Assembly: GCA_040081265.1 (NCBI GenBank)
Contig: JBEBGV010000001.1
Span: 200,559-264,558 of the forward strand
DNA length: 64,000 nt
Reading direction: 5' to 3'
Origin: Vicinamibacterales bacterium
Lineage (GTDB): Bacteria; Acidobacteriota; Vicinamibacteria; Vicinamibacterales; UBA2999
Both the position numbers and the translations under genes were made by a program. The notes beneath the pieces were generated by a model, which saw nothing but the letters and a program-made list of their open reading frames with translations, did no database searches and was not told the origin of the DNA. Each line of letters starts with the position of its first letter. Positions within the stretch are counted from its first letter, which is position 1. Below, piece after piece: positions 20,000 to 55,784 of the stretch.

Positions 20000-21298
20000 A
20001 TGAAGAAGCCGCTGTCTGACCGTCGCCCGTGGCTGGCGGTGGCGCGGGCGTATGGTCGAGCATTCTGGACCCGCAACCATCTGCCGCCGGGCGATCTCGT
20101 TGACATCGACGAACAGGAACGCCGACGGCGAACGATGCTCCTCGACCGCGCCGCGCGCTACGGTCCTGTGTTCAAAGGGCTGATGGAGCGCCGGCTGACG
20201 GTCTGCGTGGTCGGTCACGAGCGGGGTCGGCGGTTACTCAAGGACCACGCAGCGGATCTTCGCCCGGTGACGATTCAGCTCGAGTCGTTGTTTCCCAACG
20301 GCTTCATGCGTGGGATGCAGGGCGAGGTCCACCGTGACTATCGCAGAGCCCTGGTACACGGGATCGGTGCGCTTGATTTCGATGTCCTGACGCCACGAAT
20401 CGAGGGGTGCGCCGACGCGGCGCTGGCGGCCTATGCGGACGCTCCGGCACCAGCCTCGCCTCAGGCCTGGGCGGGCACGCTGGCCCAGATCGCCGCCAGT
20501 GCACTGATCACGATCTTCTTCGGACCTGACCCCGCCCATCCAGCGCACGCACGCCTCCTTGCCGCCTACCATCGGCTCGGACCGCATGGTGTCGTGTGGA
20601 CCATCTCAACGCGCCAGGTCGAGGCGTATCAGGCGCTGTGCGCAGAACTCGCTGCCCTTGACGTTGACGCCGGTGGTTTGCTGGGCCACCTGCGGGCACA
20701 GGGCAACGTGGATGACACGCTGCTCGGCAACCTGGTGTACATGGTGGAACTGGGCCGCTATGACTTGCGTGGTCTGCTGCGCTGGATCTCGCGTTATGCC
20801 GCAGACCATCCCGCCTGGCTCGAGCGTATCGCGATGGAGGCCGCAGGCCATGCTGGTGCGGTCAGCGGGAAGTCCGTCGCAGAAGCGTTCGTACTCGAGA
20901 CGCTGCGCATGGACCAGAGCGAACGGTTGATGCGTGACGTTCGGCGCGAGTTCGTCTTCGACGGGTGGCTGGTTCCCCGGGGTTCGTTGGTGCGGGTGTG
21001 CATGTGGGAAGCACACAAAGAGCCACAGTCCTTTCGGCAGCCGTTCGTGTTCGACCCGGCGCGATTTCTTGGTGACGGCCTTGCGACAGACCGATTTTCG
21101 CCATTCGGCCTCGATCATCACCACTGCCCGCTGGCCGGCCCGTCGGTTGAAGTCGCGGTCGCCTTCCTGCGCGCGCTGGCGCGCAATTACGTTGTCGACG
21201 GTCGCAATTTCGAACCGGCCGTGCGCGGACCCTATCACTGGGAGCCATCCACGAAGTTCGAAGTCACCTTGAAGCGCAACGGCGGGTCGGCTCATTGA
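20000..21298 (+). CDS. Cytochrome P450 (divergent)
   Basis: ORF 19718..21298 trimmed to MKKPLSD (ATG 20000). ExxR (ETLR), FDPARF, and Cys-ligand loop FSPFGLDHHHCPLAG. Confidence 0.8.
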   Translation: MKKPLSDRRPWLAVARAYGRAFWTRNHLPPGDLVDIDEQERRRRTMLLDRAARYGPVFKGLMERRLTVCVVGHERGRRLLKDHAADLRPVTIQLESLFPNGFMRGMQGEVHRDYRRALVHGIGALDFDVLTPRIEGCADAALAAYADAPAPASPQAWAGTLAQIAASALITIFFGPDPAHPAHARLLAAYHRLGPHGVVWTISTRQVEAYQALCAELAALDVDAGGLLGHLRAQGNVDDTLLGNLVYMVELGRYDLRGLLRWISRYAADHPAWLERIAMEAAGHAGAVSGKSVAEAFVLETLRMDQSERLMRDVRREFVFDGWLVPRGSLVRVCMWEAHKEPQSFRQPFVFDPARFLGDGLATDRFSPFGLDHHHCPLAGPSVEVAVAFLRALARNYVVDGRNFEPAVRGPYHWEPSTKFEVTLKRNGGSAH

Positions 21299-23955
21299 AC
21301 GAACGTCCGGACCACATCGTCGCCTGCTTTGCGGAACGAGTCGCAGAGGCGCCTGGGGCCGTGGCGGTCGTGGACGAGGACGGTGCCACCTCGTACGCCG
21401 CACTCGCCGCGCGCGCCGACGCCGTGGCTCGACACCTGCTCTCGGAAGGGCTCGTAGCCGGACAGCCGGTGGGCGTCTGGATGCGCCGCCGCGCCGAGCT
21501 GGTGGCCGTCCTGCTGGGCGTGATGAAGGCCGGGGGCGCTTATGTGCCCTGCGATCCCGAGGATCCGCCCGACCGCGTGCGCCGCATGCTCGACTCATGC
21601 GGCAGCGCGCTCGTCGTCGGCGATCCAGCGCTGCTGGAGGCATTGCAGGCGGAGTGCGTCACAGCCGCCGGTACCTCGCCGCGCGGGCTCGACCCGGACA
21701 CCATCCCCGCGCTTCCTGTCGGCGTCGCACCGGTGCTCTGTGCCGAAGGAGGCTCGCGGCTCGCCTATCTACTGTTCACGTCGGGCAGCACCGGTGATCC
21801 GAAAGCCGTCGAGGTCGAGCACCGGCAGGTGCTGGCGCTGCTGCGATCGGCGTGCGAGCTGCTGGGATTCGGTCCTCGTGACCGCTATCTGGCCGCGTCG
21901 ACTATTGCCTTCGACGCCTCGATTACCGAGTTGTTCCTGCCCCTGGTCACGGGCGCCAGCCTGTTGCTGCGTGACCGAGGCATCCTGTTGGAGCCACGAC
22001 GCCTCGCCCAGGAGGTGCGCGATTGCGGCGTGACCGTGGTGCAGACGGGACCCTCGGTGTGGTCCGTCATACTGGCCGAGGTACCCGACTTTCCGCGCGT
22101 GCGTGTCGCGATCACGCACGGCGAGGCGGTATCGCCAGAGCTGGCGCGACGCTTGTGCACATACGGAGAGGAGGTCTGGAACCTCTACGGTCCCACTGAA
22201 ACGACCGTGTGGGCGACGGGTTTCCGGCTCTCACCCGACGCCGGTGCGACGCTGTCACCGATGTCGGCGCCCATCGGACGGCCGCTGGCTCATGTGCGCG
22301 CCCACGTCGTCGATGAGCACGGCAAAGCCGTTCCAGACGGGACCGAAGGGGAGTTGTGGCTCGGCGGGCCGAGCGTCGCGCGCGGTTACCGCGACAACGA
22401 TGCACTGACGCGTGAGCGCTTCGTCGAGTTCGGCGGGGAGCGTGTGTACCGCAGCGGTGATGTCGTCGTCCGCGACGTCCACGGCGTCCTGCACTACTTC
22501 GGCCGCAACGACGACCAGATGAAGGTGCGCGGCATTCGTGTCGAGCCGAGCGAGGTCGAGGCCGCGATCCTGCGCGACTCGCGGGTGGCGCACGCAGCGG
22601 CAACCTGGTTTCCGACACCGGGCGGCACCAGGGCCATCGTGGCCGCGGTGGTGCTTCGCCCCGGCGTAACCTGTCGAGCGAAAGACCTGCACGAGAATCT
22701 GGCGACGCGCCTGCCCGCACCGATGATCCCGGCACGGTTCGTGTTCTTGACCGACCTGCCGTTGACGACCAGCGGCAAAGTAGATCGCAAGGCTATCAGG
22801 CAGCGTGCAAGCGCTTCCGGAGGAGAGGCGACGCCCGGACTGTCGAACGAAGGGACTCAGCAGCAGCCACCAAGCCGCATACTGACCGGCACCGAGCGTG
22901 TAGTGAGTGGCGTATGGCGGCGTCTGCTCGGCGTGGAATCAGTCGAGGCCGACGATCACTTCTTCACGGTCGGTGGTGATTCGCTGACCGCGGTGCAGAT
23001 GATGGTCGAGCTCGAAGGGCGGTTTGGTCTCGTTCTGCCCGTTCACCTCGCGTTTGAGGCGCCGACCCTTGAAACTCTGTCCGCGCGCATCGACGCTCAG
23101 CTCGAGCTGAGTGACGACGAAATCATCAATGACTTCGTCTATCCGCTGGTGCCTTCCGGAAGTGGTCCGCCGATGTTTTTCAGCGGCGTCGACTTGTCAC
23201 TGGCGCGTCGCGGACTCTGGACGGTGCCCTGCCCGTTGTTCGCGATCACGAACTGGGCAAAAGGCAGTGGATTCGTCCGCATGAAGTCGATCGAGGGCGT
23301 GGCGGCATCGCACCTGGCGCGCGTTCGCGGTGTCCAGCCGCATGGGCCGTATCGGTTTGGCGGTTACTCGCTCGGCGGGTTGATCGCGCTAGAGATGGCG
23401 CACCAGGTACGCGCCGCCGGTGAAGAGGTCGAGTTGCTGTTTCTGCTCGACCCGATGGCCCCGCTCGCTGTGGTCACGCCGGGCGCTGAACGCGCGCCGG
23501 CGCTCACGCGTCCCTCACTGGCGTTCCGGGTCGCCCGTCGAGTGTCGCGAGTGGCGAAGGGGCCAGGAGCTGCAGGATGGCCGCGCTGGTTTGGGTTGAT
23601 GGCACCTGTCCATCTGAGCGAGATCGTCGGGTGGTACCGTTATCTGGCGGTTCACTATTATCTGCGACACCCGAACCCGGTCTGGCGTGCACTCTTCCCA
23701 GCCAACCGCTGGCGGGCGTTCTGGGTCGCCGCACGACGGATGGTCTGGTGGTATTCGGCGCGCCCGTACGACGGTCGTGTGCTGGCGGTGTTCTGTGAGC
23801 AGGGCGAGCGTGGGCAGGTATGGGAATCCCTGCTCGGAAAGGAAGCTACGCGGCTCTCGCTGGACGCTCCCCACCTGGAGTTGTTCCAGGAACCGGCAAT
23901 CGGTCAATGGATGAAGTGGTTGTCCGAGTTCGTCACCGATCACGGCGTGCAATAG
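21295..23955 (+). CDS. Stand-alone NRPS module: adenylation, thiolation (PCP) and thioesterase domains
   Basis: TTG start overlapping the P450 TGA (TTGA). A-domain cores: MKAGGAYVPCDP, LLFTSGSTGDPKAV, FDASITE, NLYGPTETT, GELWLGGPSVARGY, YRSGDVV, GRNDDQMKVRGIRVEPSEVE, SGKVDRKAI. PCP: FFTVGGDSLTAVQM. TE: GYSLGG...LDP...APHLELF. There is no C domain. Confidence 0.9.
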   Translation: MNERPDHIVACFAERVAEAPGAVAVVDEDGATSYAALAARADAVARHLLSEGLVAGQPVGVWMRRRAELVAVLLGVMKAGGAYVPCDPEDPPDRVRRMLDSCGSALVVGDPALLEALQAECVTAAGTSPRGLDPDTIPALPVGVAPVLCAEGGSRLAYLLFTSGSTGDPKAVEVEHRQVLALLRSACELLGFGPRDRYLAASTIAFDASITELFLPLVTGASLLLRDRGILLEPRRLAQEVRDCGVTVVQTGPSVWSVILAEVPDFPRVRVAITHGEAVSPELARRLCTYGEEVWNLYGPTETTVWATGFRLSPDAGATLSPMSAPIGRPLAHVRAHVVDEHGKAVPDGTEGELWLGGPSVARGYRDNDALTRERFVEFGGERVYRSGDVVVRDVHGVLHYFGRNDDQMKVRGIRVEPSEVEAAILRDSRVAHAAATWFPTPGGTRAIVAAVVLRPGVTCRAKDLHENLATRLPAPMIPARFVFLTDLPLTTSGKVDRKAIRQRASASGGEATPGLSNEGTQQQPPSRILTGTERVVSGVWRRLLGVESVEADDHFFTVGGDSLTAVQMMVELEGRFGLVLPVHLAFEAPTLETLSARIDAQLELSDDEIINDFVYPLVPSGSGPPMFFSGVDLSLARRGLWTVPCPLFAITNWAKGSGFVRMKSIEGVAASHLARVRGVQPHGPYRFGGYSLGGLIALEMAHQVRAAGEEVELLFLLDPMAPLAVVTPGAERAPALTRPSLAFRVARRVSRVAKGPGAAGWPRWFGLMAPVHLSEIVGWYRYLAVHYYLRHPNPVWRALFPANRWRAFWVAARRMVWWYSARPYDGRVLAVFCEQGERGQVWESLLGKEATRLSLDAPHLELFQEPAIGQWMKWLSEFVTDHGVQ

Positions 23956-23976
23956 CCCGTTGTATGCTGTCGGCTC

Positions 23977-25941
23977 ATGGCCGACCCGAAGCCCCCCGTT
24001 GAGATCGCAGATCTTCTTCAGGAAGATCGACGTTTTCCCCCTCCCGGCGAATTCACGGCGCACGCAACGATCAACGATGCGAGTGTCTATGATCGCGCCG
24101 ACCGCGACCCCGAAGGCTTCTGGGCCGGCTTCGCGGCGGAACTCGAGTGGTCCACCCCGTGGACGCAAGTGCTCGACTGGAAACCTCCGCATGCGAAGTG
24201 GTTTGTCGGCGGCAAGCTCAACGCGTCGGTCAACTGCGTCGATCGCCACGTCCGCGGCCCGCGCCGGAACAAGGCGGCCATCATCTGGGAAGGCGAGCCA
24301 GGCGAGCGGCGCACGCTCACGTACTTCGATCTCTATCGTGAAGTCAGCCAGTTCGCCAATGCATTGAAGTCGCTCGGGGTGAAGCGCGGCGACCGTGTCG
24401 CGCTGTACCTGCCCCTCATTCCCGAGCTCGCCATTGCGATGCTCGCCTGCGCACGCATCGGGGCGGTGCACTCGGTCGTCTTTGGCGGCTTCAGCTCAGA
24501 GTCGCTGCGCGACCGCATCAACGATTCCCACTGCACGCTGCTTGTGACAGCCGACGGTGGATGGAGGCGGGGACAGGTTGTTCCGCTCAAGCAGATGGCC
24601 GACGAGGCCCTGAAGGACACGCCTTCGATCAGGAACGTCGTGGTCGTCCAGCGGCTGCACGGCATGCCGTCCCAGGTACACATCAAGGAGGGCCGCGACC
24701 ACTGGTATCACCGTCTGATGCAGGACGCATCCTTCGACTGCGCGCCGGAAGCGATGGACGCGGAGGACATGCTCTATATCCTCTACACGTCGGGCACGAC
24801 GGGAAAACCGAAAGGCATCGTACACACGACCGGCGGATACATGGTCGGGACCTATGCGACCACCAAGTGGGTCTTCGACCTGAAGGACGAAGACGTCTAC
24901 TGGTGCACGGCGGATCTTGGATGGGTCACCGGGCACAGCTACGTCGTCTATGGCCCGCTGGCCAACGGTGCGACGGTGTTGATGTACGAAGGCGCGCCAG
25001 ACTGGCCAGACAAGGGGCGATTCTGGCAGATCATCGAGCGCTACGGCGTGACGGTGTTTTACACTGCGCCCACCGCCATTCGTGCGTTCATGCGCTGGGG
25101 AACGCAGTGGCCGGAAGCGCGCAACCTGTCGAGTCTGCGCCTGCTCGGCTCGGTCGGCGAGCCGATCAATCCGGAAGCCTGGGTCTGGTATCACCGATAC
25201 ATCGGCGGTGAACGTTGCCCGGTTGTCGACACGTGGTGGCAAACCGAGACGGGTGCGATCATGATCAGCCCGCTTCCGGGCATCACCAGCACGGCGCCGG
25301 GATCGGCCACGCGTCCGTTCCCCGGCATCAAGGCCGAGATCAAGAACGACAAGGGCGATTCGCTGTCCTCGGGGGGCGGACTCCTGGCGATCACGCGGCC
25401 GTGGCCGTCGATGCTTCGCGGTATCTACGGCGATCCTGAGCGTTACGTGACGCAGTACTGGAGTCGATGGACCCCGGATATCTACTTCACGGGCGATGGG
25501 GCGAAGCTGGATCAGGACGGCTTCTTCTGGCTCCTTGGCCGTGTCGACGACGTGCTGAACGTTGCCGGGCACCGCATCGGAACCATGGAGGTCGAGAGCG
25601 CGCTGGTCGATCATCCGCGCGTGGCGGAGGCTGCCGTGGTGGGACGGCCGCACGAAATCAAGGGTCAGGCAGTGGCTGCATTCGTCACGGTCAAGGAAGG
25701 CACGGTGGTGTCGGAGTTGCTGGTCGCCGAACTCAAGGAGCACGTCGTCAAGAAGATCGGTGCCATCGCGCGTCCTGACGACATCATCTTTGCGGCTGAC
25801 CTGCCCAAGACCCGGTCCGGCAAGATCATGCGTCGATTATTGCGTGACATCGCCGAAGGCAAGGCCCTGGGCGACACCACGACGCTGGCCGACCCTGCGG
25901 TTGTGGCGCGGTTGAAGGAGCAGTACCAGGACGAGCATTAG
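23977..25941 (+). CDS. acs: Acetyl-CoA synthetase (acetate--CoA ligase)
   Basis: 654 aa. [25 protein letters not shown], and a canonical Acs N-terminal region. Confidence 0.95.
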
Positions 25942-31019: not shown

Positions 31020-32294
31020 GTGCGACTGCTCCTGATCGGCATCCTCGTTGCCTTCGGTGTGCCGACGGCCTCCGCCCAGGAGCCAGACCCCGGCGGATCG
31101 CAACGGGGCAGCGCGACGCAGGGTAGCGATGTCTCGTCGCGAACTCCGTGGAACGGTACCGTGCACTTCGGGCCGCTGATCATCGACCCTGAGGTTCGGC
31201 TTGACAGCGACTGGCGCCGCTCCAAACCGGCATCGTCGCAGGATGCCGACAATGACCTTCTTCTGTCTGGCAAGCGGGTCGGCTTCGATGCGCGCCTGGG
31301 AAAGCGGTTTGGATTCGAGATCAGCGCTGACCTGACCTCGTCGACACCCTGGCGCAATGTGCGGGCTGACTACCGCCTTCCCGCTGGCGTCACGGTGACG
31401 GCCGGACAGTTCAAAGTGCCTTTCAGCCTCGATGGTGCGCGCAGCGCGCTGGAGCGTGACTTTGTTTTCCGCTCGAGGCTCGCCGATGCATTTTCGATGG
31501 GTCGAGACCGCGGGGTCACGCTCGACACGCGCTTCTGGCGAAAGCGCCTCACCGTTGACGGCGGTCTGTTCGCAAGAGATGGAGACCGGACCGCCAGTGA
31601 CTCTGGCGTGACTGGCGGAGCCGGTCTGACTGGCGTCGGCCGGGTCACCATCACACCACTGTCGAGACGTCGCGGAATCCTCAAGGACTTGCGGATTGGT
31701 GTCAGTGGCGCCAGTAGCCGCCTCGAGGCGCGTCGGTCCGAACTGACGCCACGTACCGTTGCTGGCCAGGAACTCACCCCGGCGCTGTACTGGGCCGAGG
31801 GCCGGCGGACTCGCGCCGGCCTCGACGTGCGCTGGCGTCCAGGTCCGGTGTCGCTGGCCGCTGAGTATCTCAGGGTTGCTGACGAGCGACATGGCCAGGG
31901 GAACGGCAATGAAGATCTGGCACCACTCACGGGATCCGGATGGTTTGTCGAAGGAACCTGGCTGCTGACCGGCGAGGACAAGGCCAAGAACCAGCGCCCC
32001 CGACGACCGCTGCTGGCGGGAGGCGTGGGCGCACTGGAACTGGTCGGGCGCGTAGAACGCGCTTCAATCGGCGAGCGCGGGATGGTCGCGGCCTTCGCGG
32101 GCAGTCCTCGCGCTCCGCACGCGGCCTTGAGCGGCGTGCGGGTGTTCACCGCAGGCATCAACTGGTACCCGGCCGCCGGCGCCCGGGTGCAGTTCAACGT
32201 GGTCGGCGAAACTATTGACGGCGCGACCGCCTCGTCTCTCCGCGGAATATCAACCGTGCTCACGAGCGCGGTGCGGTTTCAGCTGTTTCTATGA
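31020..32294 (+). CDS. Phosphate-selective porin O/P family outer-membrane protein
   Basis: GTG start and signal peptide ...GVPTASAQ. TAGQFKVPFSLDG motif, alternating beta pattern, and an aromatic C-terminal end (RFQLFL). Confidence 0.7.
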   Translation: MRLLLIGILVAFGVPTASAQEPDPGGSQRGSATQGSDVSSRTPWNGTVHFGPLIIDPEVRLDSDWRRSKPASSQDADNDLLLSGKRVGFDARLGKRFGFEISADLTSSTPWRNVRADYRLPAGVTVTAGQFKVPFSLDGARSALERDFVFRSRLADAFSMGRDRGVTLDTRFWRKRLTVDGGLFARDGDRTASDSGVTGGAGLTGVGRVTITPLSRRRGILKDLRIGVSGASSRLEARRSELTPRTVAGQELTPALYWAEGRRTRAGLDVRWRPGPVSLAAEYLRVADERHGQGNGNEDLAPLTGSGWFVEGTWLLTGEDKAKNQRPRRPLLAGGVGALELVGRVERASIGERGMVAAFAGSPRAPHAALSGVRVFTAGINWYPAAGARVQFNVVGETIDGATASSLRGISTVLTSAVRFQLFL

Positions 32295-33499
32295 GCATCC
32301 TGCCGAAGGTTCGGGCACTGGTCGTCGGCGTCCTCCTCGTCCCGGCACTGGCTTCTGCTCAGACCTCGGATGAACTCTTTGCGCCAGACGTCCTCCACGA
32401 CGTCTTCCTGCGGATCAATACCCGCGACCTCGAGGAGCTGCGCGCCAGCTACGACCTCAACACCTACTACCCAGCCGACATTCAGATTGGTACCGAGGTC
32501 GCCCGCAACGTCGCCATCCGTTCACGCGGACGCGCGAGCAGGAACCCGTCGAAGCTGGGGCTGCGGGTTGATATTGACCACTTCGTGGCCGACCAGACCT
32601 TCTTCCACCTGAACTCGCTGGTGCTCGACAACTTCGTGCAGGACCCCTCGATGCTGCGCGAGCACGCGGCCATGGCGCTGTTCACGCGGATGGGCCAGGC
32701 GGCGCCGCGCACCGCCTTCGGCCGCCTCTTCATCAACGACGAGTACCAGGGCGTTTACGGTCTGGTCGAGGAGCCCAACGAAGCTTTCGTTTCCAGGCAT
32801 TTCGGTGCCGACAAGGGGTATCTCTTTGAGTACCACCGGATCGGGCCTTACTACTTCGACGATCTCGGGGAAGACCTGGCGACCTATCAGGCGCTTTTCG
32901 AACCGCGCACTCAGGAGCGCGCCGCACCGAATCTGCTTTACGCTCCGTTAAGGGAACTGGTCAGGGGCGAGGATGGTGAGAGCCTCAACGACTGGCGGGC
33001 GCGAGTGTCAGCGTATCTGGACCTCAACGAGCTCGTCACGATCGTCGCCATCGAGGAGTTTTTGTCCGAGTACGACGGCCTCACCGGCTATGCCGGTGCG
33101 AACAACGTCTACATCCACCGTCCCAAAGGTTCAGAACGGCACGTGTTCATCCCCTGGGATAGAGACCAGTCGTTTTTTGACGTCTACTCGCCGATCTACC
33201 TCCGGGCGAACGAGAACCGGCTGGTTCGCCAGGCACTGGCCTTTCCGGACCTCAACGCGTTCTACCTTGCGCAGGTCGCTGAAGTCGCTCGCATCAGCGG
33301 CGATGGCGACTGGCTGCAGCGTGTCATCCAGCGGGCCGACGCCCTGATCGCGCCGTCGGCGAAGGCAGACCCGCGGAAACCGTTCACCGTTGACGAGCGT
33401 GAAGGCGCTGTTCGGGGTCTCGTCGACTTTGCCCAGCGCAGATCAGAGCTCGTGCTCGAGCAGATACGCCAGCTTCCTCCTCCCGCAGTCCAGCCCTGA
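32291..33499 (+). CDS. Secreted CotH kinase family protein
   Basis: The ATG overlaps the porin TGA (ATGA). Signal peptide VVGVLLVPALASAQ. CotH-like blocks LFINDEYQGVYGLVEEPNEAFVSRHFG and NNVYIHRP...FIPWDRDQSF. Confidence 0.75.
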   Translation: MSILPKVRALVVGVLLVPALASAQTSDELFAPDVLHDVFLRINTRDLEELRASYDLNTYYPADIQIGTEVARNVAIRSRGRASRNPSKLGLRVDIDHFVADQTFFHLNSLVLDNFVQDPSMLREHAAMALFTRMGQAAPRTAFGRLFINDEYQGVYGLVEEPNEAFVSRHFGADKGYLFEYHRIGPYYFDDLGEDLATYQALFEPRTQERAAPNLLYAPLRELVRGEDGESLNDWRARVSAYLDLNELVTIVAIEEFLSEYDGLTGYAGANNVYIHRPKGSERHVFIPWDRDQSFFDVYSPIYLRANENRLVRQALAFPDLNAFYLAQVAEVARISGDGDWLQRVIQRADALIAPSAKADPRKPFTVDEREGAVRGLVDFAQRRSELVLEQIRQLPPPAVQP

Positions 33500-37557: not shown

Positions 37558-38307
37558 CTAGTTGACGGTGCGGCCCTGGTTGGCAACAGCCGCGGCCGCC
37601 CGCTTCACCGCCTCCGCATCGCCCAGATAGAACTTCTGCAGCGGCTTCAGCTCGTCGTTGAGCAAGTACACGAGCGGAACTCCGGTGGGGATGTTCAGCT
37701 CCACGATCTCTTCTTCTGACACGTTGTCCAGATACTTCACCAGCGCGCGCAGGCTGTTGCCGTGCGCAGTGATCAGTGTCCGCTGCCCGGCCCTGATGCC
37801 TGGAGCGATGGTGTTGTGCCAATAGGGAAGAAAACGCGCCACGGTGTCCTTCAGCGACTCGGCGAGCGGGATTTCGTGTTTCTTGAGAGACGCGTAGCGT
37901 CGGTCGTGTGAGGGGTGACGCGGATCTTCAGCGGTCAGCGGCGGCGGAGGAATGTCGTAGCTGCGCCGCCAGATCTTGACCTGCGCCTCGCTGTGCCTGG
38001 CGGCGGTCTCGGCCTTGTTGAGGCCCTGCAATGCCCCGTAGTGACGCTCGTTCAGGCGCCAGGATCGCTGCACCGGAACCCAGAGGAGGTCCATCTCATC
38101 GAGCGCCATCCACAGGGTGCGGATGGCGCGCTTCAACACGGAGGTGTGGGCGACGTCGAACTCGAACTTCTCCGCGGCCATCAGGCGCCCTGCTTCGCGC
38201 GCCTCCGCCCGGCCCTTGTCGCTGAGGTCTACGTCGGTCCAGCCGGTGAAGCGGTTTTCCTGATTCCACGTGCTCTCGCCGTGACGGAGCAGAACGAGTC
38301 GATACAT
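37558..38307 (-). CDS. gpmA: 2,3-bisphosphoglycerate-dependent phosphoglycerate mutase
   Basis: [10 protein letters not shown] catalytic His motif, 249 aa, and [11 protein letters not shown]. Confidence 0.93.
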
Positions 38308-48885: not shown

Positions 48886-50157
48886 TCACGATCGCTTGAC
48901 GCGGCCGATCAGGCGTTCGAACCGACCGAGCACCGCTTCCCAACGCAACTGCTGTCGCGCGTACTGCCGGCCGCTCTCACCCAGACGTTCACGCAGCCTG
49001 GTGTTGGTCATCATCGTGCGCAGCCCGTCGGCGAATTCTTCCCCGTTGGCGTAATACAGGCCACCGCCGGATCGTCGACAGTGTTCGACGGCGGCGGTGT
49101 TGCGCGCGCTTGCCAGGACAGGCGTGCCGACCGCCAGGCTTTCGAGCACTGACTGCGACAGCAGGTCATCGGATGCCGGCGCCATGGTGACGTCGGCGGC
49201 TTCGTACGCGAACATGCGATCGCGAACCGGCAGCACGCCAGCCAGCCTGACGCGGGGATTCTCAGGCACGTTCACCATCTTCGCGCCCATGAGTACGAGC
49301 GTGGTCTCGCTGTCGTGCTGGGAGTATGACTCGAAGTACTCCAGCATCTCCTCGGCGCCGTTGTCGGCCTCGAGGCGTCCGTCGTAGAGCGCCAGGGGAC
49401 CGTAGAGTCGATGTCGGCGCCGGAAGGGAACGCCACGGCCAGAAAGATAGTCTGGCGCCTCGAGTGGCTCCTCATCCGTCGACAACTCGTCGTCGGGTGT
49501 CACGACGTCGTTGGGATCCTGCTGGTGCCTCGGGTAGGCGAGCTGCTGCGCGGGCTCGATACCGATGCCGACCACTTCTTCGTACGCGCTGGCGCCCGGC
49601 ATGAACGCCTGCAGGATCGGCCGCTCAGCGGCAGAGAAGAGGCCCGTGCCCCGGGCTGACGCGATCAGATCGGCCCAGAGTCCGAACCGAAGGCTGGGGC
49701 GGCACTGGAGGTACGGGAAGAGAACGCTGCGGTCAGGCGCGATTGGCAGTCCATGGACGGTCGTGGCGTGCTGGAGCGAGAAGAACACGATGGCGTCGTA
49801 CTGCTTGTGTTGCCGCTTGAGGAAATCAAGCAGCCCGGGGGCAGTTGGCCCATACTGGGCGACCCAGTCGAGCTCCTCTGTCCGCGAATGCGGGGCGCTC
49901 CTGAGAACGCTGGTGATCAGCCGGAATGCTTCTCGATCGTGCGGCTGGCTGACCGCAAATCGGCGCACCAGGACACCGCGCACCTTGTCGGCTCCCTCGG
50001 CGTAATCGTTCTTCCATGTCAGCGGGTCCGGGGCGCAGGTGGTCAGGACGTCGACGTCATGGCGTTCGACCACGTGCTCGGCAAGGAGACGGCAAGCGTG
50101 TTCCGGGCCGGCGGGAATCTCGGCGCCGTAGCGCGGGGTGATGAAGGCAAGTCTCAC
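48886..50157 (-). CDS. Glycosyltransferase family 4 (GT-B)
   Basis: GTG start overlapping the upstream stop (GTGA). Paralogous to the next gene (RYG.EI..G.E...R.LAEH......V.VLTTCA). C-terminal E..ESL....LE motif region. Confidence 0.8.
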   Translation of the reverse strand: MRLAFITPRYGAEIPAGPEHACRLLAEHVVERHDVDVLTTCAPDPLTWKNDYAEGADKVRGVLVRRFAVSQPHDREAFRLITSVLRSAPHSRTEELDWVAQYGPTAPGLLDFLKRQHKQYDAIVFFSLQHATTVHGLPIAPDRSVLFPYLQCRPSLRFGLWADLIASARGTGLFSAAERPILQAFMPGASAYEEVVGIGIEPAQQLAYPRHQQDPNDVVTPDDELSTDEEPLEAPDYLSGRGVPFRRRHRLYGPLALYDGRLEADNGAEEMLEYFESYSQHDSETTLVLMGAKMVNVPENPRVRLAGVLPVRDRMFAYEAADVTMAPASDDLLSQSVLESLAVGTPVLASARNTAAVEHCRRSGGGLYYANGEEFADGLRTMMTNTRLRERLGESGRQYARQQLRWEAVLGRFERLIGRVKRS

Positions 50158-51458
50158 GGGCGACCGAACATCCTTTCAGGACGCACCGGACCGGCCGGAA
50201 GCGCCGCGACCACGTCTGCAGCTGGCGGTTTGTCGAGGCGCCGCCTGGCGAACCAGCCAGGAATGGCCTCCATGGTTGAACGCTGAGGTTCTGATCCGAG
50301 ACGGGAGAACATGTCGAGATAGGCGCGTTCAATGACCGGCCAGCTGTAGTGCCTCTCGTAGTACTGCTGTCCGCGTCTTCCCAGTTCGGCCGCCATCACC
50401 GGGTTATCGAGCAGGGTGTCCAGCACGCCGGCGAACTCGGCTGCGTTCTGATAATACAGCCCCGCGCCGCTTCGCAGACACTGGCCGACCAGCACGTCGC
50501 ATTTCCCATTGGCGACGACCGGCCGCCCCAGAGCCCAGGCCTCGAGCGCCACCATCGAGAGGCTCTCGAAATAGGAAGGCATGACCAGAGCCTCGCTGCC
50601 GGCGATGACGTCGAACTTGTCCTGATCGCTGACAAATCCCAGGTGACGAATTCGGGGGTGCGCCGGAATCTCAACTACCGGCGTTCCGATGAGCACCAGG
50701 GTCAGGTCGCGCCCGGTCTGCGTGAGGAACCGTTCGAAGTGGTTGAAGAGCTCGGGAAACCCCTTGTTCGCGTCGATGCGACCCACGTAGACCACGTAGG
50801 GCGTGTGGAGGGTGAACCGCTGACGGGCCCGTTCCGCCGACCACTCGGGCGGGAGCTCAGAGCCCACTCCCACGACAACGCCTGGCACCTCATCGTTGTT
50901 GGCGATGCCGCGAATGAGCGCGCGCTCCTCTTCGGAGTTGTACATGATGGCGCGCACACCCCGGAACACCGCCGGCATCACCGACAACCCCAGGGAGGGC
51001 TCTCTCTCAGCGGTCGGAATGAGCACCGCCCGGGACGGCACCAGACGCGCGCCATGATAGGCGTGGTGGTAGCGGACGCTGAACAGCAGGACGAAATCGA
51101 ATTCGTCTCTGCCAGCCGACAAGCGCTCGAGCAGACCTCGGCTGAGGGGACCCTCGCTGTCCAGCCACAGCAGTTCATCCTGAATGGAATGGACGTGCTG
51201 AAAGACCTGCTTCGATCGACGGGAGAAGTCGAACGCCTCACGTTCGCGGCTGACGGAAAAGCGCTCCACCACGATGCCGTTGACCCGATCCTCGCCGGCT
51301 GGCAGCTCGTTGCGCCACGTGATGTAGTCGCTGGCGCACGTCGTCAGCACTCGTACCTCAGCGTGGTGAGCGAGGTGTTCAGCGACGTAACGCGCGTGGA
51401 GTTCGGCGCCACCGTTGATCTCCACGCCGTACCGCTGCACGACGATCGCCAGTTTCAT
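50154..51458 (-). CDS. Glycosyltransferase family 4 (GT-B)
   Basis: MKLAIVVQRYGVEINGGAELHARYVAEHL..., ...MPSYFESLSMVALEAWALGRPVV. Confidence 0.8.
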   Translation of the reverse strand: MKLAIVVQRYGVEINGGAELHARYVAEHLAHHAEVRVLTTCASDYITWRNELPAGEDRVNGIVVERFSVSREREAFDFSRRSKQVFQHVHSIQDELLWLDSEGPLSRGLLERLSAGRDEFDFVLLFSVRYHHAYHGARLVPSRAVLIPTAEREPSLGLSVMPAVFRGVRAIMYNSEEERALIRGIANNDEVPGVVVGVGSELPPEWSAERARQRFTLHTPYVVYVGRIDANKGFPELFNHFERFLTQTGRDLTLVLIGTPVVEIPAHPRIRHLGFVSDQDKFDVIAGSEALVMPSYFESLSMVALEAWALGRPVVANGKCDVLVGQCLRSGAGLYYQNAAEFAGVLDTLLDNPVMAAELGRRGQQYYERHYSWPVIERAYLDMFSRLGSEPQRSTMEAIPGWFARRRLDKPPAADVVAALPAGPVRPERMFGRP

Positions 51459-51488
51459 CGTGAGCCGGGGTCGCCCGCCTTCAGGGCC

Positions 51489-52625
51489 TCAGGATGCGGA
51501 TCCTGACGAACCCGGTTCCTCGGGGGGTAGCGCAGCCGCGGGTGCATCGTTGACGACCTCGTCTCTGGCCGACGATGCCGAGTACTGCGGGGCTTCGGTT
51601 TCCGTGACCGGCGTCTGTTCGTCACCGCTGTCTGCGGACTCGTCGCTCTGATCGTCGGCATCGTCTTGTTCGGCCCCCTGCGGGGAGAACTGGCCAGAGG
51701 CCGCCGAGTTGCCCTCAACAGACGCTCCACCGCTCCGCCGGCCTCGCCGCCGCCGTCGCCGTCTGCGCTGACCTTCGGTCCCTGCGCCCTCGCTGGAGCC
51801 GACGGCTGGAGCGAGCGCGCCCACTCCGGGCTCCGGGGGGGCAGCTGCTGGGGGTGCCTGAGGTGTTGCCACGGGCACGTATGAGTCCTGGCTGGCCCGC
51901 TGGTTGTGGCGTTGCGGCGCCGGGGCTGCTTCAAGGCTGCGAACACGGCGGTCCGCGAAGTCCACTCTGGTTGCGAGGGACTCCACCTTCAACGTCAACG
52001 CCTGGAGTTCAATACTCAGCCTGGCGGATTCCGTGACGACGCGCTTGAGCAGTTCGAAGTGCAGGGCATTCCATTCAGCCTGCTGCTGGGCGCGCTCGTT
52101 CTCCCGCGATGCGTGCTCCGCATTCAGACGAGCCTGGGTATTCAGTGCGTGCACGATCGTGTTGGGATTGAAGAACAGCCTGAGGAGCGGATTCAGCAGC
52201 TTCCGGATGGTTCTCAGCAGTCCCCGATGTGTGTCGTACAGCGTTGAGTCTTCAAACGTGAACGCGGGTTCGGAAGACTCGGGTGCCAGCTCACGCGAAG
52301 GCCTGGTGCCGGCGGCCTTCCGTAACTGTTCAAGGAGGCTGGGGTTGACGTTGCGAGGGTCGAGGATAGCTTCGAGTCTCCGTGCCGCGAGCTCGCTGAC
52401 CTGCTGGGTTGAGAGGTCGATGCCGTGGCGGTGCGCGATGCGGGCGCGGATGTCGCGCATGATCTGCTCGACGTCAACGTGCTCGGAGCGCGCAGCCTGG
52501 GGTTCGTTGCTCTGCGACGCCCGCGGCTCCTGGCTGCCCTGAGGGCGCCGATCGGGGCGGCGACCACGGTTGAAGTGCCCGCGGCGTCCCCGTCCTTGCC
52601 CGCCGCTTTGCTGATTTTGTTCCAT
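51489..52625 (-). CDS. Hypothetical protein: RGG/Arg-rich N-terminus, central coiled coil, Arg run then an acidic disordered tail
   Basis: 378 aa. GGQGRGRRGHFNRGRRPDRR; VDVEQIMRDIRARI; heptad-like QQQAEWNALHFELLKRVVTESARLSIELQALTLKVESL; RRRRRRRRGRR; DDADDQSDESADSGDEQ. Confidence 0.5.
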   Translation of the reverse strand: MEQNQQSGGQGRGRRGHFNRGRRPDRRPQGSQEPRASQSNEPQAARSEHVDVEQIMRDIRARIAHRHGIDLSTQQVSELAARRLEAILDPRNVNPSLLEQLRKAAGTRPSRELAPESSEPAFTFEDSTLYDTHRGLLRTIRKLLNPLLRLFFNPNTIVHALNTQARLNAEHASRENERAQQQAEWNALHFELLKRVVTESARLSIELQALTLKVESLATRVDFADRRVRSLEAAPAPQRHNQRASQDSYVPVATPQAPPAAAPPEPGVGALAPAVGSSEGAGTEGQRRRRRRRRGRRSGGASVEGNSAASGQFSPQGAEQDDADDQSDESADSGDEQTPVTETEAPQYSASSARDEVVNDAPAAALPPEEPGSSGSAS

Positions 52626-52664
52626 GTCGGTACGTAGGCCGGACTGTGTCCCGGCGGCGCCTTT

Positions 52665-53789
52665 CTAGTATCGCCTGAAGAGAGCTCCCCACTCGGTTTT
52701 CATGAAGTCACGGATACGCGACTGACCGACGGTGGGATACCACATGTAGTCGTGATAGATGTTGGACGCCATCGGCGCCCAGGCCACGAGCGGCGAGTGG
52801 AGCAGGATGCGCTCGAGCGGCCGAAGGAAGCCACGCCGAATCATCTGATCGCCCCAGATCACCAGGGACCGGCGGGTTTCGAATCCGAAGTTCTCGTGTG
52901 AGACATCGTCGCCGACCAGTTCGATGTTGGCCGGATCGGCGATGCCCAGTCCGCGTTCGTGAGCCATGCGCAGGAACGGAATCGACATCGGGTCAAATCC
53001 CATCAGCTTGGCGGCGACGGCGTCAATGGCGACCGAGTCGGTGGCCGCCAGGATCAGGTTCTTCACCCGTGGAATCATCGTACGTGGTCCGGCGCCGTCG
53101 CCGGCGATGGTGCCGTCCATGACCGTGAAGACCGACGGGTGCAGCTCGCGCTGCATGTAGAGCAGGTCCACGAGGACCTCGTGCATGTATTTGTGCGCGT
53201 AGTGACGCACCTCACGGAGCAGCCCGCCGAAGGAATTCTTGACCGAGCCGGTCATCACCGCGTGGCCGTGCGTCTTGACCGTCGGCAGGTGCAGGATCTG
53301 GCGACCCGGATAGATGGTCGGAATCTGAATGCCGTCGGGGAAGATGTGATTCAGCTTCAGGAGCGGGCTCTTGAACTTGTAGATCTGCCACTCGACTTCC
53401 GGAAGCGGAGTGAAGGTGAGCCGGTGTTTCGCCAGGACAGGTTCCCAGCGGTTGTTGCGACAGCCTTCGCGCGGATTGGTGACGACGGTCTTATTTTCGA
53501 TCGGGATGAGGCGCGCGCGGTCGAATCCGTCGGCGAGCATCTTGGATAGAACACCGTCGACCTGCCACGGCTCTGACGAGCACGCCGGGAAATACTTCGT
53601 CCACGACAGGTTCAACTTGATGAGCGTGTCGACCTCGCGTGACAGCGTATTCCGGTACTGAGCCAGGTCCATCAGACGCGCGTAGTCTTCGATGATCGTT
53701 TCGGGGCGCGTCCGTATGACCGCCACCCGCGCACTGCGCGGGGGAGTCGTCGTGACGGGGCCTGATGGCGCTTCAAGGGTGCCTGGCAT
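52665..53789 (-). CDS. DUF362 domain-containing protein
   Basis: KLNLSW...PAC, KTHGHAVMTGSVKNSFGG, MDGTIAGDGAGP and ATDSVAIDAVAAKLMGFDP match my recollection of DUF362. Confidence 0.7.
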   Translation of the reverse strand: MPGTLEAPSGPVTTTPPRSARVAVIRTRPETIIEDYARLMDLAQYRNTLSREVDTLIKLNLSWTKYFPACSSEPWQVDGVLSKMLADGFDRARLIPIENKTVVTNPREGCRNNRWEPVLAKHRLTFTPLPEVEWQIYKFKSPLLKLNHIFPDGIQIPTIYPGRQILHLPTVKTHGHAVMTGSVKNSFGGLLREVRHYAHKYMHEVLVDLLYMQRELHPSVFTVMDGTIAGDGAGPRTMIPRVKNLILAATDSVAIDAVAAKLMGFDPMSIPFLRMAHERGLGIADPANIELVGDDVSHENFGFETRRSLVIWGDQMIRRGFLRPLERILLHSPLVAWAPMASNIYHDYMWYPTVGQSRIRDFMKTEWGALFRRY

Positions 53790-53805
53790 GGTGTGGTAGA
53801 GGAAA

Positions 53806-54729
53806 TCAGCGACCGAGTGGCGAGTAGAGCACGAGTACGACGCTCAGTCCCCAGAGACCGACACAGAGCAGCAGCGGCCGATCCGACAGGAGCAGCGCGG
53901 ATGGGCTTCCCCCCTCGCGTTTGAGGTGCACCAGATAGAGATAGCGGAAGATGCCGTAGAGCACAAACGGGATTGTGGCCGTCAACCGGGTGGTGCCCAG
54001 TTTGGCCTCGGTTTCCGGACTGATCGCGTAGAAACAGTAGGCTACCAGCGTCGAGGCCGTAACGACACCAATCATCTGGTCCAGGAGGTAAGGGGAATAC
54101 TCCTGAAGGATGGGCCGATGGCCCGAAGCCCCGGTGGTCAGGATGGTCAGCTCGTGACGGCGCTTGCTGAGCGCCAGGAAGAGCGCGAGCAGGGTGGTGC
54201 AGACGAGCAACCACTCGCTGATCGGCACATTGACCGCGATCGCCCCCGCTGCGGCTCTCAGCACGAAACCAGCGGCGATAACCAGGACGTCGACGATCAC
54301 GATGTGTTTGAAGACCACCGAGTACATGGTCAGCAGGACCGCATAGGTCAGCGCCACGGCGGCAAGCCGCCAGCTCATCAGAGCCGCGCCTGTGAGTGAC
54401 GCCCCAATGAGAACGATCGCCGCGATCAGTGCGGTCCCTGGCGCCAGCGCCCCCGATGCCAGAGGACGGTGTTTCTTGAGGGGGTGGGCCTGATCAGCCT
54501 CGCGATCGGCGATGTCGTTGCACAGGTAGACCCCGCCTGAGAGGCCGCAGAAGATGACAAAGGTGGCGACGGCCGCCAGCACAGCCGCGGGCTCGTCGAG
54601 GCGCTGCCCGAAGAGCAGGCCGGCGAAGACGAACAGGTTCTTGGTCCACTGCCCGGGTCGTATCGAGCTGAGGAGGAGAACCGGTAGGGACCGCCGCGGT
54701 CCAGGCGACGGGGAGTCGCCCTGGCCCAC
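53806..54729 (-). CDS. UbiA-family polyprenyl-phosphate phosphoribosyltransferase (decaprenyl-phosphate 5-phosphoribosyltransferase-like)
   Basis: GTG start. RPGQWTKNLFVFAGLLF and NDIADREADQAHPLKKHRPLASG. About nine TM helices. Confidence 0.72.
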   Translation of the reverse strand: MGQGDSPSPGPRRSLPVLLLSSIRPGQWTKNLFVFAGLLFGQRLDEPAAVLAAVATFVIFCGLSGGVYLCNDIADREADQAHPLKKHRPLASGALAPGTALIAAIVLIGASLTGAALMSWRLAAVALTYAVLLTMYSVVFKHIVIVDVLVIAAGFVLRAAAGAIAVNVPISEWLLVCTTLLALFLALSKRRHELTILTTGASGHRPILQEYSPYLLDQMIGVVTASTLVAYCFYAISPETEAKLGTTRLTATIPFVLYGIFRYLYLVHLKREGGSPSALLLSDRPLLLCVGLWGLSVVLVLYSPLGR

Positions 54730-54733
54730 GGGG

Positions 54734-55081
54734 CTATGCCTTGGCAGTGAAGCTGCGGACGGCGTCTGCTTCGCTGTCGTACGTCTCGAACACGGTCAGA
54801 AGCTTCGTGATCGCGAGCAGGTCCGTAATGCGCTTCGTGAGGTTCAGCAGCTTCAGCTGACCGCCCTCACGGGTCACCGTCGTGTAGGTCCGGACGATTT
54901 CACCAAGGCCGGCGCTGTCGATGTACGGCACATCGGCCAGGTTGAGCACGATCTTGCGGCGGCCCTGGCTGGCCAGGCTGTTGATCTTGTCTTTCAGGAG
55001 CTCGTCGCCCTCACCGAGCGTCATCTTGCCCTTGAGATCGAGCAGGGTGACATCCCCCGCCGACCGTTCCTCGATCTGCAT
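54734..55081 (-). CDS. STAS-domain anti-sigma-factor antagonist (SpoIIAA/RsbV-like)
   Basis: 115 aa. Conserved phospho-serine motif YIDSAGLGEIV. Its stop is 4 nt before the UbiA-family start. Confidence 0.85.
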   Translation of the reverse strand: MQIEERSAGDVTLLDLKGKMTLGEGDELLKDKINSLASQGRRKIVLNLADVPYIDSAGLGEIVRTYTTVTREGGQLKLLNLTKRITDLLAITKLLTVFETYDSEADAVRSFTAKA

Positions 55082-55242: not shown

Positions 55243-55542
55243 TCAGGCTCCGGCGAACTTACGTTGCTGGAAGCACTCCTTGCAGAACACCGGTCGGCCT
55301 TGCGTGGGACGGAAGGGCACCGTGGTTTCCTTGCCGCACGCCGAGCAATTGGTGGTGGTTTCCACTCGACCCTGACCCGACGGACCGGCTGACACCCGGT
55401 TGGCCCGTTTAGCCTTGCACGCCTTGCACCGTTTCGGTTCGTTCTTGAACTGCTTGTCGGCAAAGAACAGCTGTTCTCCAGCCGTCCAAATGAAATCCGA
55501 CCCGCAGTCCACACACGCTAGGGACTTGTCTTGGAACTCCAT
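55243..55542 (-). CDS. Double zinc-ribbon protein (four CxxC pairs)
   Basis: 99 aa. C10xxC13...C39xxC42 and C67xxC70...C87xxC90. Lys/Arg-rich linker. 44 nt downstream of rpsU. Confidence 0.7.
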   Translation of the reverse strand: MEFQDKSLACVDCGSDFIWTAGEQLFFADKQFKNEPKRCKACKAKRANRVSAGPSGQGRVETTTNCSACGKETTVPFRPTQGRPVFCKECFQQRKFAGA

Positions 55543-55586: not shown

Positions 55587-55784
55587 TTACTCCGTTTCGC
55601 GCCGGAGCTTCTTGCGGTTACGCTTTCGCGCCAGAGCCTGCTTGGCTCGGCGTTTATCACCTGGCTTCAAATAGAAGGAGTGCTTCTTGATGTCCTTGAT
55701 GATGTCTTCCTGCTGCACCTTCCGCTTGAACCGACGAAGAGCGCTCTCGATTGACTCGCCCTCTTGAATCTTGACTTCAGCCAC
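55587..55784 (-). CDS. rpsU: 30S ribosomal protein S21
   Basis: 65 aa with a GTG start. SIESALRRFKRKVQQEDIIKDIKKHSFYLKPGDKRR. Confidence 0.93.
   Translation of the reverse strand: MAEVKIQEGESIESALRRFKRKVQQEDIIKDIKKHSFYLKPGDKRRAKQALARKRNRKKLRRETE

Follow-up and report, generated by a model that had tools for sequence, protein, structure and literature searches.

Known pentofuranose-donor systems combine a synthase of the UbiA type with a 5'-phosphatase, a flippase, a GT-C glycosyltransferase and, optionally, an epimerase (DprE1/DprE2 or the short-chain dehydrogenase/reductase (SDR) ORF13), and in all characterised systems the 5'-dephosphorylation is obligatory, its enzyme being usually fused or adjacent to the synthase (PMC11127046). 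Here we describe an operon from a stretch of 64,000 nucleotides of a Vicinamibacterales bacterium (Acidobacteriota; contig JBEBGV010000001.1, positions 200,559 to 264,558; hereafter the window, to which all coordinates refer), in which a UbiA homologue is followed directly by a gene of the DUF362 family. The locus had been singled out in an earlier reading of the bare sequence (the original prediction), and the reading that we favour, with a probability of roughly 45%, is a pentofuranose-donor pathway in which DUF362, a protein with a LarA-like fold, serves as the tailoring enzyme, possibly as an epimerase. What appears to be new is the UbiA-DUF362 module itself, the wide range of Bacteria and Archaea that have it, and the LarA-like fold encoded by its second gene. 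The two core genes are:

53806-54729, minus strand: predicted UbiA-superfamily polyprenyl-phosphate 5-phosphoribosyltransferase (PPPRS/DPPRS type), 307 aa; NF008977, PF01040; core gene 1
52665-53789, minus strand: DUF362-family protein, 374 aa; PF04015, E=1.6e-20; core gene 2

The UbiA protein scores 301.9 bits against NF008977, the NCBIfam model for decaprenyl-phosphate phosphoribosyltransferase (cut-off 234), and 220.9 bits against NF008978 (cut-off 207), compared with just 17-47 bits for the models of quinone, haem and geranylgeranylglyceryl phosphate (GGGP) prenyltransferases. It also aligns over its full length with Rv3806c of M. tuberculosis (8j8j, E=2e-35, residues 13-295). The cryo-electron microscopy study of Rv3806c lists the contacts to phosphoribosyl pyrophosphate (PRPP), and the phosphoribose-binding residues can be taken as diagnostic since they are not common to ordinary UbiA prenyltransferases (PMC10994848). 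Nine of the 12 PRPP/Mg contacts are kept in the alignment: the pyrophosphate cluster Arg22, Lys87, Arg90, Lys143 and Tyr138 (R24, K85, R88, K141 and Y136 in the window protein), the Mg ligands Asn73 and Asp77 (N71 and D75, within an NDxxDxxxD motif formed by N71, D72, D75 and D79), and the 5'-phosphate contacts Lys28 and Tyr70 (K30 and Y68). The third 5'-phosphate contact, Tyr157, is replaced by F155, and a Phe occupies this position in some mycobacteria as well (PMC10994848). The other two departures are Gln135, which contacts the ribose O3 and corresponds to L133, and Lys208, which corresponds to P206; both columns are variable among the DUF362-adjacent UbiA proteins, and both are minor contacts, the Q135A variant of Rv3806c retaining 30% activity (PMC10994848). 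Among 47 DUF362-adjacent UbiA genes, archaeal ones included, the nine contacts are kept in nearly every complete sequence, and the departures from NDxxDxxxD consist of gaps in truncated open reading frames (ORFs) and one Tyr at D81. Together, the NF008977 match, the alignment with Rv3806c and the conserved contacts support PRPP-dependent transfer of phosphoribose to polyprenyl phosphate, and we consider the window protein very probably to be such a phosphoribosyltransferase, of the Rv3806c type and not a quinone or haem prenyltransferase, as the original prediction had it.

The second gene is strongly co-conserved with the first. We collected 80 species-representative genome loci with a DUF362 orthologue (49-83% identity to the window protein, Bacteria and Archaea) and counted UbiA genes within 5 kb; a UbiA of the same clade adjoins DUF362 in 48 of the 80, across more than 15 phylum-level bacterial and archaeal lineages, and is mostly the next gene upstream, co-directional and less than 100 nt away. 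These loci come from Acidobacteriota, Rokubacteria, Aminicenantes, Krumholzibacteriota, Planctomycetota, Clostridia, WOR-3, Actinomycetota and five DPANN archaeal groups. The reverse test, in which a UbiA alignment was run against metagenome contigs, gave DUF362 downstream of UbiA in 31 of 65 assessable loci, directly so in 28 of the 31 (gaps of -21 to 79 nt). The co-conservation of the two genes that the original prediction had put up for examination is thus found in both directions, and the conserved functional unit is the UbiA-DUF362 pair, not the six genes of the operon. We consider it likely that DUF362 works in the same pathway as UbiA, on the UbiA product. The related-locus scan used an alignment of 10 sequences, one of 39 being too diverse; gene calls were heuristic and crude (longest non-overlapping ORFs), and the neighbour clustering, on 163 loci in total, was redone on this non-overlapping set, as clustering of all ORFs was polluted by antisense and overlapping frames in high-GC DNA. 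Taxon labels of metagenome-assembled genomes (MAGs) are sometimes wrong: three contigs binned as Acidimicrobiia/Bifidobacteriaceae MAGs (L005, L009, L010) carry the complete Vicinamibacterales synteny, with DUF362 proteins 76-83% identical to the window copy, and are probably mis-binned.

Genome loci without UbiA are of two sorts, short contigs and members of coherent lineages (Chloroflexota, Ignavibacteria, Zixibacteria), and they are still flanked by exopolysaccharide genes, e.g., XrtA/PEP-CTERM loci in Ignavibacteria and Zixibacteria. In Krumholzibacteriota-type loci (L022, L043, L047, L048, L050), ispE directly follows the pair, and in several of them it is followed in turn by spoVG, prs (PRPP synthetase), L25 and pth (block at about 9-13 kb in L022, L043, L047 and L050, and at 2-6 kb in L048). 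Genes of the methylerythritol phosphate pathway and of PRPP supply are thereby found next to an enzyme that would use polyprenyl phosphate and PRPP, possibly by coincidence; the adjacent PRPP synthetase is only weak support, because ispE-spoVG-prs-L25-pth is a housekeeping block. The GHMP kinase downstream of DUF362, considered at one point as a PRPP-using enzyme like beta-RFAP synthase, is IspE of this same block.

Further evidence on the pathway comes from what else surrounds the pair. L064 has the order UbiA, DUF362, a PMT_2-type GT-C and an SMR-like four-helix protein, joined by a 13-nt gap and two 4-nt overlaps, an order repeated in L084; a PMT_2 GT-C gene also comes directly after DUF362 in two archaeal loci, L059 and L065. 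Searched against the PDB, the GT-C proteins of related loci gave no sequence match. Genes for SMR-like, EamA and LPG_synthase_TM proteins, all candidate flippases, recur beside the pair, as do WecA/WcaJ-type initiating transferases, a Wzy_C protein, GT2 and GT4 glycosyltransferases, UDP-glucose dehydrogenase, NAD epimerases and XrtA/PEP-CTERM exopolysaccharide genes. One archaeal contig (L068, 1626-9065) carries three DUF362 paralogues, with a GT2-like gene and an FAD amine-oxidase-like gene between paralogues 1 and 2 and two LPG_synthase_TM (flippase-like) genes between paralogues 2 and 3.

DprE1-like (FAD_binding_4 plus ALO) and DprE2-like (adh_short) genes occur as pairs beside UbiA in L147, L156, L158 and L160, and in L147 and L158 they take the very slot that DUF362 takes elsewhere; L115 has a DprE1-like gene only, and all five loci are devoid of DUF362. 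Not one of the 114 DUF362-containing loci has a DprE1/DprE2-like pair. Fisher tests by hand, with kinship ignored, gave about 0.03 for the metagenome sample and about 0.002 for the pooled UbiA-containing loci. That DUF362 stands in the place of a modifier of the lipid-linked sugar, as originally proposed, agrees with this shared slot. The missing DprE1/DprE2 pair, on which the original prediction had laid some weight, is indeed not encoded among the scanned ORFs of the window, but such an absence is in itself not unusual: it is not novel on its own, because the direct use of polyprenyl-phosphate (polyprenyl-P)-ribofuranose donors, without DprE1/DprE2, has already been described (PMC11127046). 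In two other loci (L098, 1504-3012; L105, 4825-6315), a radical-SAM protein of about 500 aa is encoded directly downstream of UbiA, with DUF362 absent, and may be a third alternative tailoring enzyme.

The DUF362 protein is of the soluble type, with neither a signal peptide nor a transmembrane segment. Looked up as an exact sequence, the window protein had no match. Identity to the window copy is 83-90% among the 120 metagenome matches listed, and 5358 cluster representatives match it at E<=0.001. The names borne by close homologues place the window in Vicinamibacterales. Bacterial orthologues come, among others, from Acidobacteriota, Rokubacteria, Zixibacteria, Krumholzibacteriota, Aminicenantes, Ignavibacteria, Planctomycetota, Clostridia, Latescibacterota, WOR-3 and Chloroflexota, and archaeal ones from Woesearchaeota, Altiarchaeota, Aenigmatarchaeota, Nanohalarchaeota, Parvarchaeota and Methanosarcinales. 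Sequence and profile searches against the PDB returned noise only. An AlphaFold2 model built from 39 diverse homologues has a pLDDT of 92.4 and a pTM of 0.91, and the top 12 Foldseek matches of this model in the PDB are all LarA-family racemases/epimerases (among them 9eia, 4nar, 7s91, 9q3j, 9q3k, 6d6z and 5huq; probability 0.95-1.0, E 1.4e-4 to 8e-3, TM 0.34-0.42). DUF362 and the N-terminal domain of LarA belong to one Pfam clan, CL0471 (PMC11770544). Moreover, three lactate racemases of Loigolactobacillus (P0395, P0396, P0399) match the DUF362 hidden Markov model (HMM) over residues 82-245 with 26.1 bits against a gathering threshold of 24, and since genuine LarA proteins pass this threshold, the Pfam families DUF362 and LarA overlap at the sequence level.

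The LarA signature consists of the catalytic residues D72, H108, H174 and K298 and the cofactor residues R75, K184 and H200 (PMC7583248). Residues were paired from two local profile alignments, a global hhalign alignment having given nonsense; the two local alignments, both weak (E=0.07 and 0.35), pair H174 and K184 of DUF362 with His174 and Lys184 of LarA, at the same spacing of 10 residues, and both are kept in 80-81 of 81 orthologues. Across these 81 sequences conservation reaches 97% or more at 69 positions, among them K172, T173, H174, K184, N185, R195, H196, H199 and H203. The invariant set specific to DUF362 includes C70, W75/Q76, N99/T101, H167, K172-T173-H174, K184-N185, R195/H196/H199/H203, D208, D225, R236, D251/D256 and H346, and it is accompanied by a conserved, aromatic-rich, helical C-terminal extension (residues 309-373, with Y345, W350 and W367). 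Judging from the model and these alignments, DUF362 is best described as a LarA-fold sister family with a partly shared active-site loop, and not as a member of the nickel-pincer LarA enzymes.

At least six DUF362 homologues (P0122, P0123, P0141, P0143, P0146, P0147) contain inteins, inserted exactly between K172 and T173, which corresponds to about 53271-53276 on the minus strand of the window. The N-extein has ...HLPT(V/M/I)K at its end, Cys1 and HN bound the intein, and Thr or Cys stands at +1; most of the inteins carry LAGLIDADG homing-endonuclease domains, and P0129 is also intein-bearing. The insertion sites of inteins are usually catalytic motifs, and we know of no earlier report of inteins in this family. 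Long DUF362 homologues that might have passed for UbiA fusions proved to be intein insertions, save two probable chimeric predictions (P0184, P0216). Other DUF362 proteins carry nested 4Fe-4S domains (PMC7955657), which hints at redox chemistry in the family.

We therefore picture the pathway, in outline, as follows. At the cytoplasmic face of the membrane, the UbiA-type enzyme would transfer 5-phosphoribose from PRPP to polyprenyl phosphate, giving polyprenyl-phospho-beta-D-ribofuranose-5-phosphate. The soluble DUF362 protein would then, we infer, bind the phosphoribosyl head group of this lipid and remodel it before export, most likely by a redox-neutral inversion or an oxidation at a ring hydroxyl, C2' or C3', which is the job of DprE1/DprE2 or of the SDR epimerase ORF13 in known systems. 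Related loci suggest that a small DMT/SMR-, EamA- or LPG_synthase_TM-type protein would flip the modified lipid, and that a GT-C enzyme would use the flipped donor to decorate an envelope glycan. Hydride-transfer chemistry at C2' or C3' is favoured because of the LarA fold, the sharing of a slot with (and exclusion of) DprE1/DprE2, and the nested Fe-S domains, and we propose epimerisation or oxidoreduction as the DUF362 reaction tentatively, at somewhat less than even odds. A narrower version, in which DUF362 is a single-polypeptide epimerase/oxidoreductase with a metal or pincer cofactor that acts on lipid-linked phosphoribose, replaces DprE1/DprE2 and leads to polyprenyl-P-arabinofuranose or another non-ribose pentose, strikes us as rather doubtful. 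As to the epimerase that the original prediction had in mind, the LarA racemase/epimerase fold speaks for it, the activity itself stays conjectural, and a role as 5'-phosphatase is a live rival.

Several observations weigh against the pathway as drawn. No flippase or GT-C gene is present in the operon or among the scanned ORFs of the window, and being absent from the operon both must be encoded elsewhere in the genome. The operon has no 5'-phosphatase gene, and HAD or PAP2 genes do not recur around the UbiA-DUF362 pair. The exclusion between DUF362 and DprE1/DprE2 derives from five loci, with kinship ignored. About 20 DUF362 loci with full flanks are without UbiA (Chloroflexota, Ignavibacteria, Zixibacteria), and about half of the related UbiA loci are without DUF362. 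The kinship with LarA is also distant: the window protein matches only PF04015, and neither Lar_N (PF09861) nor LarA_C (PF21113) even at E<=10, the profile alignments are statistically weak, and conserved counterparts can be proposed for just two of the seven signature residues. LarA Asp72, His108 and Lys298 align with S62 (invariant), V102 and H277 (non-conserved), Arg75 aligns, in the same weak profile alignments, with K65 (Lys in 56 of 81 sequences), and the Ni ligand His200 is placed within an insertion peculiar to LarA, with H196, H199 and H203 of DUF362 near but unaligned. Nor did a recurrent LarB/LarC/LarE cluster emerge beside DUF362 in the 163 loci, in which no Lar-specific search was run, and the orthologue also occurs in DPANN archaea with small genomes.

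The lack of a phosphatase can be turned into an explanation of its own, in which DUF362 is the missing phosphoribose 5'-phosphatase and the donor is plain polyprenyl-P-ribofuranose. The step is obligatory and its enzyme usually sits in or beside the synthase (PMC11127046), whereas the UbiA genes of the pair, at about 300 aa, have no fused phosphatase domain and no recurrent HAD or PAP2 neighbour, and the invariant H167, H174, H196, H199, H203, H217, D208, D225, D251, D256, K58, K172, K184, R195 and R236 would suit a metal-dependent phosphohydrolase with bound phosphates. We nevertheless regard it as unlikely: the only characterised relatives by fold are hydride-transfer racemases/epimerases, DUF362 excludes DprE1/DprE2 pairs instead of joining them, yet those systems too need a phosphatase, and the nested Fe-S domains of other DUF362 proteins fit redox chemistry, not hydrolysis. 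We know of no phosphatase with a LarA-like fold. It is less probable still that DUF362 is a non-catalytic partner (a head-group chaperone, a scaffold or a regulatory subunit of UbiA) and that polyprenyl-P-ribofuranose, with or without its 5-phosphate, is used directly, after the manner of the Citrobacter O1 type. Three-component systems do use polyprenyl-P-ribofuranose directly, with no epimerase (PMC11127046), most LarA catalytic residues are missing from DUF362, and its aromatic-rich C-terminal helices could dock on the membrane or on UbiA; however, some 69 positions conserved from Bacteria to Archaea, with many His, Lys, Arg and Asp residues closely grouped, look like an active site, the inteins sit within the K-T-H motif as they would in a catalytic one, and because roughly every second related UbiA gene does without DUF362, it is no general UbiA subunit.

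A role in housekeeping, unrelated to the UbiA product and with adjacency reflecting co-regulation or genome organisation, would account for the full-flank loci without UbiA, for Chloroflexota locus L082, where DUF362 lies between rpoD and an RNase D-like gene, for its position ahead of ispE-spoVG-prs-L25-pth in Krumholzibacteriota-type loci and after rpsU in Vicinamibacterales, and for the high conservation and the inteins, which many housekeeping enzymes share. We consider it improbable, at about one chance in ten, as co-directional adjacency of the two genes, 1-100 nt apart, recurs in over 15 lineages of phylum rank, archaeal ones among them, and in both search directions, as L064 and L084 embed DUF362 in an overlapping UbiA/GT-C/SMR operon, and as the UbiA-less loci of Ignavibacteria and Zixibacteria keep their XrtA/PEP-CTERM exopolysaccharide neighbours. 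Finally, the UbiA homologue could be an ordinary prenyltransferase for quinone, haem or lipid, and no lipid-linked pentose would then be made. The Pfam match is to the generic UbiA family only, the ribose-O3 contact Gln135 is Leu, and we know of no biochemical test in this UbiA clade behind the 'equivalog' NF008977, but the gap in score between this model and those for the quinone, haem and GGGP enzymes, the kept Rv3806c-specific contacts to 5'-phosphate and pyrophosphate, and the close UbiA relatives that adjoin DprE1/DprE2-like pairs make this very improbable indeed.

The remaining four genes of the operon are:

54734-55081, minus strand: STAS-domain protein, 115 aa; PF01740, E=1.3e-16; TIGR00377
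51489-52625, minus strand: coiled-coil protein, 378 aa; no Pfam/NCBIfam match
50154-51458, minus strand: first GT4-family (GT-B fold) glycosyltransferase, 434 aa; Glyco_trans_1_4, E=2.4e-17; Glycos_transf_1, E=8.7e-15
48886-50157, minus strand: second GT4-family glycosyltransferase, 423 aa; Glycos_transf_1, E=4e-11

The intergenic gaps along the six genes are 4, 16, 39 and 30 nt, the two GT4 genes share 4 nt, which read GTGA on the minus strand (the second start over the first stop), and a convergent gene for a sigma-54 enhancer-binding protein (EBP) has its stop at 48884, leaving 1 nt before the operon end at 48886. The motifs DSAGLG, RPGQWTKN and NDIADREADQAHPLKKHRPLASG are all found in the operon translations. 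ORF coordinates and translations thus agree with the original prediction on the genes, gaps, overlap, motifs and convergent neighbour, and Pfam and NCBIfam with its family calls (STAS, UbiA, DUF362 and two paralogous GT4). The six genes are not a conserved unit, however: the UbiA-DUF362 core is widely kept, whereas the STAS protein, the coiled-coil protein and the GT4 pair belong to Vicinamibacterales-type loci.

The STAS protein scores 71.8 bits with TIGR00377 (cut-off 53.45) and has an intact DSAGLG serine motif. In every locus of the Vicinamibacterales type (L001, L003, L005-L010, L067) it stands ahead of UbiA, a position from which it is absent elsewhere; four loci of Ignavibacteria/Zixibacteria encode STAS proteins of 241 aa at a distance of a few kb from DUF362. 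Neither an anti-sigma kinase nor a PP2C phosphatase was found for it among the scanned window ORFs or in the annotated relatives L001 and L003, and the partner-switching control once suggested for it has nothing beyond adjacency to back it. The 378-aa protein has a basic disordered N-terminus, a conserved helical core (about 56-232) and a disordered, variable tail, within which a poly-Arg run (R290-R297) is invariant apart from Gly295; its AlphaFold2 model has a pLDDT of 60.8 overall and above 90 at 160-220, with disordered ends and an 80-residue helix (154-233). It has 1862 homologues, and all 120 listed are without Pfam domains or informative names; the family is, to go by these sequences, apparently confined to Acidobacteria, and among the loci compared the gene is found only in those of the Vicinamibacterales type. 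The GT4 paralogues are 33% identical over their full length (E=7e-69), and no NCBIfam model reaches its cut-off for the first (434 aa). The first GT4 is missing from some relatives, L001 and L067 having a single GT4, and a gene similar to it (GT4a-like) occurs in L049, outside the Vicinamibacterales-type loci. As cytoplasmic enzymes, the two would probably build or prime the acceptor glycan.

Upstream of the STAS gene and in the same direction lie a zinc-ribbon gene (55243-55542, minus strand), whose product is a treble-clef protein (zf_Tbcl plus a CxxC-x17-CxxC domain), and rpsU (55587-55784, minus strand), an order kept ahead of STAS in all Vicinamibacterales-type loci. The sole sigma-70-like promoter match (55947-55919) precedes rpsU, so the transcription unit may, from this match, be longer than six genes. 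Pfam scans of 36 window proteins (the six of the operon and 30 further large ORFs) found neither an FAD_binding_4/ALO oxidase nor an SDR partner, and GT-C, RsbW-type kinase and PP2C were absent as well, in line with the list of absentees that the original prediction had drawn up. The convergent kinase and EBP were considered as PrsK/PrsR of a PEP-CTERM system, and both fall below the cut-offs of those models. A His_Phos_1 gene at 37558-38307 adjoins enolase and is probably a phosphoglycerate mutase. Two other parts of the window, unrelated to the operon, contain genes for a myo-inositol-1-phosphate synthase, a P450-like protein, a stand-alone adenylation-thiolation-thioesterase protein and an acyl-CoA synthetase (18094-25941), and for a phosphate-selective porin beside a CotH-family kinase (31020-33499).

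DUF362 (PF04015) is a large family, for which the literature searched (DUF362, COG2006, nickel-pincer plus polyprenyl) held no functional assignment, no functional study and no link to UbiA. The tight association in both directions with a phosphoribosyltransferase of predictable product gives the family a concrete candidate substrate. If DUF362 is indeed an epimerase/oxidoreductase, it would be a third, unrelated solution to tailoring in pentofuranose-donor pathways and would extend LarA-fold chemistry from small hydroxy acids to lipid-linked sugars. On the narrower version set out above, no LarA-superfamily enzyme acting on a sugar lipid would have preceded it, a large part of PF04015 would gain its first function, DprE1/DprE2 would be replaced in many uncultured bacterial phyla and in DPANN archaea, and the decoration of envelopes with pentofuranose would be far commoner than is known. 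Since DprE1 and Rv3806c are drug targets in tuberculosis, alternative solutions to this step are mechanistically interesting. The pair is spread over soil Acidobacteria, which are abundant, over candidate phyla and over DPANN archaea; hardly any work has been done on the surfaces of these organisms, and the distribution suggests an unrecognised component of envelope glycans.

Set beside described systems, the STAS protein resembles the SpoIIAA/RsbV-type modules in being a single-domain STAS that passes TIGR00377 and has the DSxGLG serine motif; unlike them, it has no cognate kinase or PP2C among the scanned ORFs of the window, and its place beside a glycan-lipid gene pair, limited to one lineage, matches no described arrangement. 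With the LarA superfamily (nickel-pincer nucleotide (NPN)-dependent 2-hydroxyacid racemases/epimerases, DUF2088/Lar_N plus LarA_C), DUF362 shares the two-domain fold and the Pfam clan; genuine LarA passes its HMM threshold, and weak alignments put an invariant His and Lys of DUF362 at the places of His174 (catalytic) and Lys184 (cofactor tether). It differs in giving no Lar_N or LarA_C match, in its missing or ambiguous counterparts of Asp72, His108, His200 and Lys298, in a variable Lys aligned with Arg75, in its own invariant set and C-terminal helical extension, and in a presumed substrate that is a lipid-linked sugar phosphate instead of a 2-hydroxy acid.

The mycobacterial decaprenyl-phospho-arabinose pathway (Rv3806c, Rv3807c, DprE1/DprE2, Emb/Aft GT-C) begins with an enzyme to which the window UbiA is homologous over its full length, with contacts kept and the same first product expected, and in both cases a tailoring gene lies beside the synthase. 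Differences are that no DprE1 (flavin adenine dinucleotide (FAD)-dependent), DprE2 (SDR) or PAP2 phosphatase (Rv3807c in mycobacteria) was found in the window, that DUF362 and DprE1/DprE2-like pairs are mutually exclusive beside related UbiA genes, that Gln135 is not kept, and that the host is a Gram-negative-type acidobacterium. Closest in logic are the three-component systems of Citrobacter youngae O1/O2 (Kelly et al., PNAS 2024, PMC11127046), which have the same UbiA-type phosphoribosyltransferase as entry enzyme, with the same catalytic motifs. The window differs from them in having two GT4 genes in place of a flippase and a GT-C, and the fused HAD phosphoribose phosphatase of Citrobacter (the 'PRP' domain of ORF15) has no equivalent here. 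A like logic is seen in L064, L084, L059 and L065, where a GT-C is added, and in L064 and L084 a small putative flippase too; this GT-C matches Pfam PMT_2, and the candidate flippases are SMR-like, EamA or LPG_synthase_TM proteins where Citrobacter has MATE. Common to both is an optional auxiliary enzyme that would change the identity of the pentose, the SDR epimerase ORF13 or DprE1/DprE2 in the known systems and, as we postulate, the LarA-fold DUF362 protein here.

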